The notes: a model not told the origin generated them from the letters alone. Counted from the first letter of the stretch, positions 29,205 through 35,320 are shown. The stretch is DNA of 36,272 bases from Promethearchaeota archaeon (GCA_016840085.1 JAEOTA010000045.1:1-36272); one strand, 5' to 3'. Program-made: numbers and translations.

Positions 29205-30545
29205 TTATTTTTTTAAAAATTTATTAATGAAATCATCAAGAACTTCTTCTATAGTCGGACTTTTGATTCCTTCGATATCGTAGCTAATTCTTACTATTGG
29301 CTTATTACTATTAATTAATTTTTCAAGATCTATTGGACTTCCATCAATAATGACTTCAGCATCCGCGTTATTTAATGTATCTTCCATATCCTTAATTTGT
29401 TGCTCATTATAACCCATTGCTGGAACTATTTCAGTAATTTGAGGAAATTCTTCAAACAGATTTTTCATTGATCCTGTAAGATAAGGTCGAGGATCAACAA
29501 TTATTGCTTCATTATTTTTAGCAGCGACATATCCTGCTCCATATGACATATTTCCATGGGTTAAAGTTGGACCATCTTCTACTACGATTACTTTTTTATC
29601 TTTGATTTTATGAGTATTATCAACTGTAACTACTGAATTAGTGTAGATTTTAATTGCTTTTGGATTGAGTTCATTCAAATTATTTTCAACAATCTTAACA
29701 TCTTCAGGTCTAGCACTATTCATTTTATTTATAACAAACGCATCAGCATATTTAGCATTTACTTCTCCAGGATGATATTTTACTTCATGCCCAGGTCTTA
29801 ACGGATCGACCACAATAAATAGCAAATCAGTGATATAAAATGAAATTTCATTGTTTCCACCATCGAAAATTATAACATCTGCTTCCTTTTCCGCTTCTCT
29901 AATAATTTTTTCATAATCGACTCCAGAATAAATAACTAATCCTTGTTCAATATATGGTTCATATTCTTCACGTTCCTCAATAGTACAATCGTATTTATCT
30001 AAATCTTCATATTTTTCAAAACGCATTACATTCTGCTTAACTAAATCACCATAAGGCATTGGTTCTCGAATCGCAACAACTCGATAACCTTTACTTTTTA
30101 AATACCTGTAAGTAGCCCGTGAAACTTGACTTTTTCCACAACCCGTTCTTACGGCACATATAGCAACAACAGGTTTATTGGCTTTAAGTTGAGTAAATTT
30201 CCCAGAGATTAATCGATAATTAGCTCCTGCGCTTAGAACTCTTGATGCCTTATGCATAACCTCTTCATGAGAAACGTCTGAATAAGCAAATACCACTTCA
30301 TCAACTTGATATTTTTTTATTATATCTTCAAGCAACTCTTCTGATACCATTGGAATTCCATTTGGATAGAGACTTCCTGCAAGTTCAGCAGGGAATGATC
30401 TTTCAGCACCTTCTATTGTACCAACATTTTGTTCTCCAGCAATAGTAAATGCGACGACATCATATTCTTCATTGTCCTTAAAAACAGTGTTATAGACATG
30501 AAAATCGTAACCTAATGCTCCAATGATAATAACTTTCTTTTTCAT
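29205..30545 (-). CDS. arcE: Arginine synthetase (ArcE; COG2403 'predicted GTPase' family)
   Basis: IIGALGYDFH, LYPNGIP, AYSDVSH, AVRTGCGKS P-loop, PMPYGDL, TIEEREEYEP, DGGNN, VEDGPTLTHG; co-located with OTC and carbamate kinase. Confidence 0.8.
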   Translation of the reverse strand: MKKKVIIIGALGYDFHVYNTVFKDNEEYDVVAFTIAGEQNVGTIEGAERSFPAELAGSLYPNGIPMVSEELLEDIIKKYQVDEVVFAYSDVSHEEVMHKASRVLSAGANYRLISGKFTQLKANKPVVAICAVRTGCGKSQVSRATYRYLKSKGYRVVAIREPMPYGDLVKQNVMRFEKYEDLDKYDCTIEEREEYEPYIEQGLVIYSGVDYEKIIREAEKEADVIIFDGGNNEISFYITDLLFIVVDPLRPGHEVKYHPGEVNAKYADAFVINKMNSARPEDVKIVENNLNELNPKAIKIYTNSVVTVDNTHKIKDKKVIVVEDGPTLTHGNMSYGAGYVAAKNNEAIIVDPRPYLTGSMKNLFEEFPQITEIVPAMGYNEQQIKDMEDTLNNADAEVIIDGSPIDLEKLINSNKPIVRISYDIEGIKSPTIEEVLDDFINKFLKK

Positions 30546-30626
30546 ATTAAATACCTTGATATTATAACCTTAGTTGATCATCTTAATTAATTTGGGGCAA
30601 ATTATTAAGATTATTAATTCTATAAA

Positions 30627-30640
30627 GGGAACGATAACCC
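30627..30640. promoter_or_regulatory. Conserved semi-palindromic motif upstream of arcE
   Basis: GGGAACGATAACCC; counterparts GAGAATGACAACCC (34363-34376) and GGGGATAATAACCC (35303-35316) at similar distance from each arcE ATG. Confidence 0.45.
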
Positions 30641-30701
30641 ACCACTAAACTTAAGCAGAAAAATGTAAAACTTGCCAAATCTTATTTGAAATAAAATATT
30701 T

Positions 30702-31826
30702 TTAAAATTCTGAAGGTCTTTTTCGTTTCATGCTACCATCATAGCTTTTTATCATTTTTTCAAAGAGTTCGACGCCTAAAGTTATTCTATATGCTGCTCT
30801 GTGGATAATTTCCCCCGTAAAGCCATCAACTACTCTATTTTTAGTTTTACGAACTGGATATTCAATTTGGAAGGCTCTTTTAATTTGTATTAATATTTCT
30901 TTATTAGAGGAATAAATTTCCGCACTGCAACCTCCAAACCAACTACCATCACCATCATAAAATCCTAACAGAAAAGCTAAAGCTAAATTTGAATTGTTAA
31001 GATTCCAAACAAAATTTGGTAAACCTCTATTACTCGCTGAAGTAGAAAGTCCATTCTTAAGAAGGTCTTGTAACATACTTCTAGATTTAAATTGAATATA
31101 TGAAGATTTTTTAAGTTTTAATTCCTCATTCTTATCATAATACCATCGTTCTCTGTCCTTTATTCTCTCAACATCAAAACCTATGACTTTAGCAAATTTT
31201 ATTAGACGTTCTCGATCGGAGGTATTGAGTTCTAGCCTAATCATATAACCATATTTTTTTCCAGTAATTTTCACGTCTGCACATAAAAAACCAAACCAGT
31301 ATGCTTTTTTTTCACAATCTATCGTTTTAAAAAAATGAGGTTTTTTTATCGTTACTTTTTCATATAAATACTCCTTTAAATCCTGATTCAATTGTATATA
31401 TTTATCAATATATGATAAACTATTTCTCGCTTTGTTCCTAAATATTACTATAAGATTTATCTTAAATTCTTTCAAGGTTTCCAAGTCGAATTTATAATTT
31501 GGATTATATCGCCTGTTATTTTGACTCAAAATATATTTTCTGATATGGTATATGTAATCTTTATGCCGACCAAGAATTAGTGCAAGTTCTCCATATGTTA
31601 GCTCAATATCGCTAGAAATTTTACCCAATTCTAACTCAATCAATCCAATAAAGGTTTTTAATGATATTTTAGAATCCTTATATTGTTTTATTAAATAATA
31701 ACAATTTGAAGCTTGATTTCCAAAATTATATCTCAATTGTTCTTCTAATAAATATAAATCTTTTTCATCTAAAGCAAAATTTTCTTCATTCTCAGACTTA
31801 GCCATAAGCTTGGACACATAATTCAT
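30702..31826 (-). CDS. Free-standing LAGLIDADG endonuclease-like protein
   Basis: Two LAGLIDADG-type motifs, AYWFGFLCADV and LAFLLGFYDGDGS; probably the 3' part of a longer gene starting at 32096. Confidence 0.8.
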   Translation of the reverse strand: MNYVSKLMAKSENEENFALDEKDLYLLEEQLRYNFGNQASNCYYLIKQYKDSKISLKTFIGLIELELGKISSDIELTYGELALILGRHKDYIYHIRKYILSQNNRRYNPNYKFDLETLKEFKINLIVIFRNKARNSLSYIDKYIQLNQDLKEYLYEKVTIKKPHFFKTIDCEKKAYWFGFLCADVKITGKKYGYMIRLELNTSDRERLIKFAKVIGFDVERIKDRERWYYDKNEELKLKKSSYIQFKSRSMLQDLLKNGLSTSASNRGLPNFVWNLNNSNLALAFLLGFYDGDGSWFGGCSAEIYSSNKEILIQIKRAFQIEYPVRKTKNRVVDGFTGEIIHRAAYRITLGVELFEKMIKSYDGSMKRKRPSEF

Positions 31827-31841
31827 ATGCTTTCCTCTACG

Positions 31842-32096
31842 TCAAAACAAAGAAAAATGTTTGTGAGAGTATTTATATCTATTAGGAAAAATCCTATGCA
31901 ATACATTGGAATATTTTTGAAGTTCTTTTTTTAGATCCTCAATTAAATTCAAAGTAGAGTATTTAGATTCCTCAGATATAAATCTTTCATCACTAAATTC
32001 TGAAGAATAATTCTCACAATCATTATGAGGATTTCGGTTTCTGACCCTATTTGTACAAAAGAATTGATTATCTTTTTTGATTTTCTTATCTGTCAT
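31842..32096 (-). CDS. Probable N-terminal part of the LAGLIDADG gene, cut by an in-frame TGA
   Basis: Same frame as 30702-31826; TGA followed by CGT AGA GGA AAG CAT ATG with no other stop. Confidence 0.55.
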   Translation of the reverse strand: MTDKKIKKDNQFFCTNRVRNRNPHNDCENYSSEFSDERFISEESKYSTLNLIEDLKKELQKYSNVLHRIFPNRYKYSHKHFSLF

Positions 32097-34127: not shown

Positions 34128-34176
34128 TATTGTAGATAGAAGATTCGATGCTTTTTAAATTTTAAATTTTACATTA

Positions 34177-34405
34177 CTATTTTAATTTACTTGATTCTTC
34201 ATTGTCTCTGAAAATAGTGTTAAACAGGTGGAAATCGTAACCTAATGCACCAATAATAACAACCTTCTTTTTCTTCATAGATATAAACTATTCTGATAGC
34301 CTTCTTTATGTTATTATAATAAGTAATTTGGGATTTGTTATAATAATTATAGATAGTATTATGAGAATGACAACCCTCCTATAAGTTCAAGCATGAAAAA
34401 TGTAA
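34177..34405 (-). pseudogene. Second arcE 5' end plus upstream region (33-aa micro-ORF 34278-34177)
   Basis: MKKKKVVIIGALGYDFHLFNTIFRDNEE then SSKLK*; upstream shares taatttgg, the GAG-N8-CCC motif and aagc..gaaaaatgtaa with 30546-30668. Confidence 0.9.
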
Positions 34406-34615
34406 GAATAATAATAGTTTTATTATTATGAAATCATTTTTGGATATTTTTTATTAAAAACAAAAACTCTATTAATTTAATATTAATTTTTGAATATAAC
34501 AATCAAGATTTTGATATTATCATCTATTTTGGTGAAATTTTTTTTATAGAGATTTGATAAAATATATATTTATTATTAATTCTTAATGATTTATTATATG
34601 ATTTAAAGGATAAAG

Positions 34616-34909
34616 GTGATTAAAATGAAGGATAAAAAAAGAATTAAAATTAAAGACCTAAAAATTAAAGTGGCCCAAAAAATGTACGACATGTATCGAA
34701 ATGATCCAAATCAAAAATTTTATGAAAAAGAATTTAAACAACTATTAAATGATGAATTAAAAGTTGAATATAATGATATCAATGTTCTAATGAAATATAT
34801 GCTAGAAAAAGATTATATTGTTTATCATCAGGATAGAGTGGAAACATCTCATTATTTTTTAATAACAGCAAATTTAATAGATTTCGTAGAAAATTTACCG
34901 AATGAATAA
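34616..34909 (+). CDS. Small hypothetical protein, possibly winged-helix
   Basis: 97-aa ORF; LMKYMLEKDYI...YFLITA pattern resembles a wHTH wing. Confidence 0.55.
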   Translation: MIKMKDKKRIKIKDLKIKVAQKMYDMYRNDPNQKFYEKEFKQLLNDELKVEYNDINVLMKYMLEKDYIVYHQDRVETSHYFLITANLIDFVENLPNE

Positions 34910-35080
34910 GATAATTTTGGCGGGGAATTTTTCGAATCGAGAATGTTTAGAAAGAAAGCCTGAGTAGTGGGGATCTTTAAATAATTCCCTAATATGTTCT
35001 TTAGAATAACCTCCTTTATTTGATATATCATCATTTGATAAAACATAAAATCATCTTCATATAAAACGGTGCGTTCTACC

Positions 35081-35320
35081 TCAGTAAAACCTTTTTTTTT
35101 GTTCTCCTGCAATAGTAAATGCTACTACTTCATATTCGTCATTGTCTTTAAAAAAAGTGTTATAAACATGAAAATCAGAACCTAATGCACCTACAATTAC
35201 AACTTTCTTTCTCTTCATAGATGTAAACCTATTTCATAGTATTCTTTCGTTCATCATATTATTTAATTTGAGATTTGTTATAATGTTTTTCGATAGTACT
35301 ATGGGGATAATAACCCACTT
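35081..35320 (-). pseudogene. Third arcE 5' end plus upstream region (45-aa micro-ORF 35218-35081)
   Basis: MKRKKVVIVGALGSDFHVYNTFFKDNDEYEVVAFTIAGEQ then a frameshift in an A9 run. Confidence 0.9.

Follow-up and report, generated by a model that had tools for sequence, protein, structure and literature searches.

An arcE-like gene on a 36,272-nt contig of a Promethearchaeota archaeon is preceded by stacked, truncated copies of its own leader and start, which were probably left as scars by serial displacement of the 5' end of the gene. We give this reading a probability of roughly 0.7. The window analysed was the entire contig (C37), which belongs to a metagenome-assembled genome (MAG; G000) of 89 contigs and 4.68 Mb with an estimated contamination of 7.6%. 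Relatives are coded G001 and so on, loci and metagenome contigs L008 and so on, and the other contigs of the genome itself C14 and C31. The genes of the window had close homologues in Promethearchaeota and Lokiarchaeota in public sources. On the coding strand, the array consisted of scar B4 (on the adjoining contig C31), a gene of ~300 amino acids (aa), the remnant of a homing-endonuclease gene, scar B3, a 97-aa open reading frame (ORF), scar B2, a radical-SAM gene, a homing-endonuclease gene, a leader of type A and the live arcE-like gene.

The live gene (29205..30545, minus strand) is a 446-aa ORF of the COG2403 / 'cyclic 2,3-diphosphoglycerate (cDPG) synthase' / 'predicted GTPase' family and was the sole full-length copy across the 4.68-Mb genome. 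The best 120 of at least 8000 homologues of its protein were 83–100% identical and came from Promethearchaeota and Lokiarchaeota. Homologues were named cDPG synthase or predicted GTPase in public sources, and a Pfam and NCBIfam scan of the protein gave no match above threshold. The name arcE stems from the arginine synthetase TK2200 of Thermococcus kodakarensis, whose homologues were formerly annotated as GTPases and resemble cDPG synthase (PMC11032458). An OTC gene, an amino-acid-kinase (carbamate-kinase-like) gene and a class III aminotransferase gene were also present in the window. We use 'arcE-like' as the safe label for the 446-aa gene, and arcE for short.

The initial annotation had described three stacked arcE 5' ends, and all three peptides were found in the window where it had placed them. 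Copy 2 begins with an ATG at 34278, and the stretch 34278–34194 was homologous to arcE nt 1–85. Copy 3 begins with an ATG at 35218, and 35218–35079 was homologous to arcE nt 1–139, with one extra A in its A-run. The two copies broke off at different points, nt 85 and nt 139, and the extra N-terminal codon they share was real in the ortholog alignment, both as previously noticed. Together with their leaders, which are of type B, they form scar B2 (34194..34440, minus strand; ORF, repeat and profile evidence) and scar B3 (35079..35341, minus strand; profile evidence). A DNA profile built from 19 orthologues was run against the whole genome and matched copy 3 with E = 6.9e-27 (35218–35079, profile positions 1–139) and copy 2 with E = 3.2e-15 (34277–34194, profile positions 2–85), so neither is a chance match. 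Past its extra A, copy 3 carried a frame-shifted stretch that aligned over ~six codons, to about codon 46 (GFTE ~ GTTE). The continuation of copy 3 suggested by the initial annotation was retained to this point; beyond ~codon 46 nothing was detected with nhmmer --max at E <= 100, including the proposed YQIKEVI ~ YQVDEVV match.

The array extends onto contig C31, because the start of the ~300-aa gene lies at the end of that contig. The ends of C31 and C37 overlapped at 58/60 positions, and the ~300-aa ORF ran continuously across the join in a comparison with G018; its C-terminal 227 aa occupy 35587..36272 (minus strand) of the window. In the same orientation, C31 held scar B4 (leader B plus arcE nt 1–29, C31 46045–46173, found by profile matches), a UPF0175/DUF3368 pair, an internal arcE fragment, more toxin–antitoxin genes, and then IDH and ATP-citrate lyase (ACL). 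The orphan internal fragment (arcE nt 768–972, with stops; C31:44812–45015, array orientation, profile match) lies upstream of the UPF0175/DUF3368 pair, and its origin is explained by none of the models considered here. At least two successive events, the number first proposed, were supported within the window, and three once the adjoining contig was joined.

A leader of about 105–130 nt was conserved across the genus. In front of the live gene it spans 30546..30670 (minus strand) and consists of a conserved box, GTGGGTTATC..TTCCC, followed by CCCAAATTAA and the ATG, as seen in the alignment and in a profile match with E = 1e-24. A sigma-70 scan, whose consensus is bacterial while the host is archaeal, found 47 sites compared with 39.5 ± 6.5 in shuffled sequences, which is no enrichment. 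The leader and first codons of arcE occurred in two forms across the genus, type A (MKKKV…) and type B (MK(K/R)KKV…), the latter being longer by one codon and differing by a 5-nt indel in the leader. When the leader plus 85 nt of arcE were used to build a maximum-likelihood tree, clades A and B each had 100/100 support. Clade A contained the live copy along with G001 and G019, and clade B contained copies 2 and 3 and the C31 copy B4. Copy 3 was the sister of the live allele of G013 (97/92), the two sharing 85% identity across a 338-nt stretch that takes in the final codons of the endonuclease remnant. Copy 2 was nearest to the live allele of G021. Copies 2 and 3 were not sisters. Their mutual likeness, noted at the outset, holds at the level of the leaders (76–77% identity across ~194 nt), and they are alike because both are of allele type B, not because of any recent shared local origin.

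Since the live copy is of type A and the scars are of type B, each nearest to the live allele of another species, the tree indicates that the scars are imported alleles from different lineages and not local duplicates. The displaced ends, in other words, group with lineages other than that of the live end. Local tandem duplication or triplication, whether of the whole gene or just of its leader and 5' region, with later decay and insertions between the copies, agrees with the copies being all direct, in one orientation and close together. Yet the copies were not mutual nearest relatives, with copy 3 and the live copy on opposite sides of a fully supported split, and both leader types were live alleles among sister species, type B in many of them. 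The full-length arcE paralogues elsewhere that an ancient whole-gene triplication should have left were absent from the genome. We therefore regard local duplication as highly improbable. A local template-switch duplication of the kind produced by microhomology-mediated break-induced replication was likewise rejected, on the grounds that the copies came from different allele lineages in the tree.

The ancestral context of the gene is ACL-IDH-arcE-AOR, and in G030 IDH lay 626 nt from arcE. AOR and the next gene downstream and ACL-IDH far upstream were conserved in the relatives, and the content between these flanks differed in nearly every genome, in line with the insertion hotspot that the initial annotation had postulated upstream of arcE. 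The gene body is a conserved anchor: arcE nt 375–700 were 77–93% identical across the genus, and sequences upstream of about −130 were unalignable between genomes. Additional leader scars were found in G013, G006 (a single-contig genome), G016, G021, G019 and the metagenome contig L028. In G013, a type A scar, a DUF389 gene, an endonuclease remnant and a type B live gene followed one another; G019 had two leader scars 18–20 kb upstream; L028 contained a type A scar, cargo and a 63%-identical endonuclease gene. Replacement has therefore gone in both directions, with an A scar beside a B gene and B scars beside an A gene. The breakpoints of eight scars in six assemblies were at −13, −9, +20, +24, +30, +29 (up to +45), +85 and +139 relative to the ATG, that is, clustered within −13 to +139 and not fixed. 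The repeats at the locus were 63–83% identical and had no identical core. In G102 the UPF0175/DUF3368 pair and leader B occurred again, here with an intact arcE behind them; the match to the B4 unit had 93% identity across 1146 nt and ended at arcE nt 29. By sequence, G102 looks like the state before one insertion.

Two further observations concern the surroundings of arcE in the relatives. The island upstream of arcE in G019 (L045, G019:C3, 2600–12400) was at least 19 kb long and contained two leader scars, large genes (704 and 1144 aa) and a helix-turn-helix gene; it looks like a defence island. A 251-aa eRF1-domain-3-like gene varied in position: some genomes had it upstream of arcE and on the other strand, and others had it downstream, on the arcE strand and between arcE and AOR (L008, L009 and L019 compared with L010, L011, L012 and C31:42291–43199 of the genome itself). 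Rearrangements have thus occurred on both sides of arcE.

The spread of breakpoints bears directly on whether integrase-mediated genomic islands inserted into the 5' end of arcE, each bringing a replacement 5' end as dusA-targeting islands do. The architecture is indeed dusA-like, with a displaced 5' fragment at the far end and an insert that supplies promoter and start (PMC4482086), and toxin–antitoxin and defence-like cargo is typical of such islands. Against it, the ORFs scanned in the ~10.6-kb island between IDH and arcE included no member of an integrase or transposase family, the breakpoints ranged from −13 to +139 in repeats without an identical core, and the inserted units were as small as 0.9 kb with ragged module edges. 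A fixed att site, against which the initial annotation had argued, is unlikely because the breakpoints vary, the repeats are only 63–83% alike and no integrase was found. The integrase reading is already largely refuted, and we rate it as very improbable.

The recurrence of the pattern also speaks to assembly quality. Alleles of co-assembled strains could have been chained together in the MAG, which has 89 contigs, an estimated 7.6% contamination and a contig break inside the island, and the contigs of several relatives end near the gene as well. In seven assemblies of the same genus a contig end lay no more than 2.1 kb upstream of arcE, which fits strain-level heterogeneity there. Yet the junctions in the window were not at shared repeats, the scars each ended in unrelated unique sequence, and the same architecture was present in independent assemblies, including the single-contig G006 and a metagenome contig of the Joint Genome Institute (JGI). 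An artefact of this kind is hardly credible.

Serial displacement would proceed as follows. DNA from a related lineage would arrive with its own leader, its own arcE start and the upstream content of the donor, and a single homologous crossover with the resident gene would take place within the conserved gene body. The other end would be joined non-homologously inside the first ~140 nt of the resident gene, where a break or an incoming DNA end would open the event. The resident leader and start would then stay upstream as a dead stub, and the imported start would become the live one. Three such rounds would give the present order of the array. We infer a one-ended recombination geometry from these arrangements. 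The window was 90–97% identical to G019 over the C-terminal two-thirds of the endonuclease gene, 91–98% over arcE nt 1–300, and 83–89% in the rest of arcE. Because the G019-like tract reaches ~+300, the crossover would lie beyond the +85 end of scar B2. The gene was mosaic across the genus, with all four combinations of leader type and 3' class occurring. G005 kept a displaced arcE 3' end (L019, G005:C7, 11585–11893; aa 342–444, of the other 3' allele class) just downstream of its live gene, so displacement occurs at the 3' end too.

The cargo between the scars consisted of small units. The radical-SAM gene (33207–34127; Pfam Radical_SAM) forms a single-gene module (33082..34193, minus strand) that is joined flush to the end of copy 2. 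The module was found at 90–94% DNA identity in nine other genomes of several genera and on C14, in an unrelated context each time and with ragged edges; in L037 the homology reached 34196. It behaves as a mobile single-gene module with a patchy distribution (61/135 genomes) and many truncated copies. The copy on C14 (3650–4726) was located between 432-nt direct repeats with 78% identity (3172–3602 / 5256–5686), and C14 was the only place where direct repeats surrounded the module, none being present within ±1.5 kb in the nine other genomes. These repeats are the 5' part of a 988-aa gene, a scar pattern like that at arcE. A second, more distant radical-SAM gene of 307 aa (17166–18089) lies within the arginine/ornithine gene cluster of the window. 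The 97-aa ORF (34616–34909) belongs to another single-gene module (34472..34900), which is on the plus strand, opposite to the array, and was 88% identical over 430 nt to contig C11 of G003. G003 was the only one of 134 other genomes of the family that contained it, and there it was not near arcE. Toxin–antitoxin pairs were recurrent cargo. A source was sought for the junction fillers 34901–35078, C31 46174–46377 and 32833–33081, and none was identifiable. At the joint of copy 2 and the radical-SAM module a 3–5-nt microhomology is possible (GAA(G)AAT / GAAAT overlap), the sampled donors being only 85–93% identical. This possible microhomology and a fold-back at the truncation point of the endonuclease remnant, described below, make end-joining a fitting route for the non-homologous joint.

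Direct repeats around inserted genes can also arise when a circle carrying cargo and a homeologous arcE leader and start inserts by a single crossover in that segment, as in Campbell-type integration. The outcome would be a truncated upstream copy and a complete downstream copy, with neither nuclease nor recombinase required, and such circles could loop out between direct repeats and move to relatives. Elsewhere in the genome, diverged direct repeats of the target junction enclosed other single genes, for example over 157 nt at the junction of AOR and a proline-dehydrogenase-like gene and over 432 nt at the C14 copy of the radical-SAM gene, and two-sided repeats support this route because a single crossover with a circle yields exactly such repeats. 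The radical-SAM gene follows a scar in the window and lies directly before the leader in G104, which is a circularly permuted order, and short-range diverged repeats were mostly direct (223 direct versus 47 inverted high-scoring segment pairs, HSPs), a count in which tandem paralogues and internal protein repeats are contained. However, a crossover inside the duplicated segment predicts a tract that stops within it, whereas the high-identity tract shared with G019 continued to ~+300, past the +85 end of B2. Moreover, neither copy was visibly hybrid, as B2 was wholly of type B and the live copy of type A over the same span, and the first structure of this kind needs a separate origin. We consider circle integration unlikely.

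Repeats resembling the arcE scars were observed elsewhere in the window. A 157-nt direct repeat of the junction between AOR and the next gene (25530–25686 / 26766–26921) had 77% identity, with a core of 85 nt at 85%. Between its copies lay one 215-aa gene in the opposite orientation; the scar is of the kind seen at arcE, here at a locus without an endonuclease gene. A 74-nt direct repeat with 82% identity (14932–15005 / 16328–16401) had its copies 1.4 kb apart, one of them within the region of the carbamate-kinase-like gene, and may be another displaced gene fragment. The genome-wide figures given above refer to diverged repeats of 60–500 nt at 0.2–8 kb distance in G000. As tandem paralogues and internal protein repeats are included, the excess of direct repeats is only a hint of a general insertion-with-scar process.

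A free-standing LAGLIDADG homing-endonuclease gene with two motifs (30702..32096, minus strand) is situated between the radical-SAM module and the leader of the live gene; it was identified from ORFs, homologues, motifs and an AlphaFold2 fold. The gene is split by an in-frame TGA at 31842–31844 into an 84-aa N-terminal piece (31842–32096) and a 374-aa ORF (30702–31826); its frame is therefore not intact, and the N-terminal ~90 aa are severed from the part that holds both motifs. The stop replaces a nearly invariant Trp, which is TGG in G019, and this single change from TGG to TGA suggests that the gene was inactivated recently, as would be expected towards the end of a homing cycle. Homologues were mostly about 465 aa long. 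Motif 1 (YWFGFLCAD) and motif 2 (LLGFYDGDG) were invariant among 24 homologues, including residues Y176, W177, G179, F180 and D184 and residues L286, L287, G288 and D291–G294, and in the 24-homologue alignment each motif ended in its acidic catalytic residue. The AlphaFold2 model (mean pLDDT 84.1) had the pseudo-symmetric alpha-beta-beta-alpha-beta-beta-alpha double-domain fold, and its top Foldseek matches in the PDB were all LAGLIDADG enzymes (I-SceI, I-DmoI, PI-SceI, PI-PfuI and I-WcaI), with target-normalised TM-scores of 0.54–0.58 for I-SceI, I-WcaI and I-DmoI and E-values down to 2e-7. The window protein scored 21.9 bits against Pfam LAGLIDADG_3 (PF14528), whose cut-off is 22.5 bits, and the family was present in the precomputed Pfam matches of many homologues. 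The gene is intergenic, has its own start, lies 157 nt upstream of the arcE ATG and is outside any intein or intron; no Rfam family, group I and II introns included, was found over 29000–36272 at E <= 0.1.

A region upstream of the endonuclease gene (32238..32832, minus strand), with a 77-aa ORF at 32599–32832, travels with it: conservation with G019 was weak (69% DNA, 47% aa identity), and the metagenome contig L028 matched at 67% over 308 nt (E = 2e-16). The 3' remnant of a second variant of the endonuclease gene, its last ~40 codons, was found at 35415..35533 (minus strand; 83% DNA identity; 80% aa identity, E = 5.5e-13). It lies upstream of copy 3, and its end, ...RKRPPEFSIKT followed by the stop, matches the 468-aa homologue P0123. 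A fold-back inverted repeat, TAGTTTCTCCT-loop-AGGAGAAACTA, is located at its truncation point (35501..35561), and the right arm of this repeat is gene-derived.

Intact or decayed, the endonuclease gene occurred at the same place by the leader in at least five independent alleles (twice in the window, and in G019, G013, L026 and L028). Its distribution next to arcE was patchy (window, G019, L026 and L028), with decayed remnants at 35415–35533 and in G013. These features, and the high-identity tract over the endonuclease gene and arcE nt 1–300, are indirect signs of possible homing. Among 154 species genomes of the order, only G019 had an orthologue with >41% identity, an intact protein of 464 aa (P0122); a 46% homologue in the original Lokiarchaeum metagenome was not adjacent to arcE, and a scan of JGI metagenomes for endonuclease contexts yielded only two informative contigs. 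Because the gene recurs beside the leader, and because free-standing endonuclease genes of fungi accompany partial duplicates, the enzyme is a plausible source of breaks. We tentatively predict that its double-strand breaks near the start of endonuclease-free alleles initiate some of the displacement events, and give this somewhat less than even odds.

Several observations weigh against serial displacement as drawn here, or against its nuclease trigger. No high-identity donor was among the sampled genomes, the closest being 85–93% identical, so the crossover points and junction microhomologies were inferred and not read off. When leaders with and without the endonuclease gene were compared, no clean cleavage or empty-site motif was found upstream of the GTGGGTT box, the sequences being too divergent. 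No endonuclease remnant lies beside scars B2 and B4, and the endonuclease gene of the window has a premature stop. Diverged direct repeats flank inserted genes at the two endonuclease-free loci of the window and the one on C14 described above, and G005 carries a scar of the arcE 3' end, which suggests that the process is general and that this nuclease is not needed. The identity to G019 was patchy, the leader being only 86% identical between two patches of 92–98%, which points to several conversion tracts instead of one clean transfer. In G104 the radical-SAM gene lies directly upstream of the leader and no scar was found there, so the order of events around this module is uncertain.

A more far-reaching proposal is that the arcE start serves Loki-type Asgard archaea as a nuclease-maintained platform for gene capture, comparable to an integron without an integrase. 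The LAGLIDADG enzyme would repeatedly break endonuclease-free alleles, and one-sided repair would import a leader, a start and neighbouring genes, with the retained old promoters driving the captured genes. A scar precedes the radical-SAM gene, the ~300-aa gene and the DUF389 gene, each in the same orientation as its scar. We consider this extension doubtful.

Eukaryotes have no closer known relatives than the Asgard archaea, whose large genomes acquire genes by routes that are poorly understood. The arcE locus offers a readable, ordered record of what would be at least three import events at one conserved gene, in a pattern that recurs in sister species. It points to recombination with diverged relatives as a means of gaining genes in which no transposase or integrase takes part, and to a possible, testable role of a free-standing homing endonuclease in gene import. 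Similar scars at other loci of the genome suggest a general route of gene insertion. The stubs are also a trap for annotation and assembly, as they give rise to small false ORFs and to contig breaks upstream of arcE.

Among known systems, T-even phages show intronless homing by free-standing endonucleases, the seg and mob genes. As there, an intergenic endonuclease gene at arcE would cut a nearby conserved gene in alleles that lack it, and the co-converted flanks of phage homing match the high-identity tract shared with G019. The phage enzymes are GIY-YIG and HNH proteins that work during phage co-infections, and their conversions are clean, whereas the arcE enzyme is of the LAGLIDADG type, resides in a cellular genome where scars are left, and its cleavage is only predicted. 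Genomic islands and prophages that target dusA (Farrugia et al. 2015, PMC4482086) resemble the arcE array in inserting into the 5' end of a conserved gene and supplying a replacement 5' end. These elements rely on a dedicated tyrosine integrase that acts at one fixed site; at arcE no integrase was found in the island scanned, and the breakpoints spread over about 150 nt.

Free-standing endonuclease genes of fungal mitochondria accompany partial duplicates of neighbouring genes, such as atp6, cox1 and the N-terminus of atp9 (Megarioti & Kouvelis 2020, PMC7487136). In both cases a free-standing LAGLIDADG gene (or, in fungi, a GIY-YIG gene) sits beside a conserved gene whose truncated duplicate ends persist as pseudogenes. 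The fungal case is organellar, and the partial atp6 and cox1 duplicates at free-standing LAGLIDADG genes are 90–100% identical, whereas the arcE array is chromosomal and archaeal and consists of diverged, apparently imported alleles, up to four of them stacked with unrelated cargo in between. Sequential displacement arrays have been described as orphan immunity genes and orphaned 3' ends in Vibrio T6SS (type VI secretion), Rhs and contact-dependent inhibition (CDI) loci, and were proposed to originate by homology-facilitated illegitimate recombination (Kirchberger et al. 2017, PMC5361080, and the works cited there, de Vries & Wackernagel 2002 and Jackson et al. 2009). As at arcE, homology is provided by a conserved part of the gene, which acts as an anchor while the variable end is exchanged for that of the incoming module; the displaced end is retained alongside, so that successive events are recorded without a dedicated recombinase. 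The bacterial arrays involve the 3' ends of polymorphic toxins and their immunity genes; at arcE the gene is a metabolic one, the host is an Asgard archaeon and the stacked pieces are leaders and 5' ends, with unrelated single-gene cargo and a resident homing-endonuclease gene at the junction. What is new here is that known processes, displacement arrays and endonuclease-linked duplicates, appear to act on the presumably promoter-bearing 5' end of an Asgard metabolic gene.

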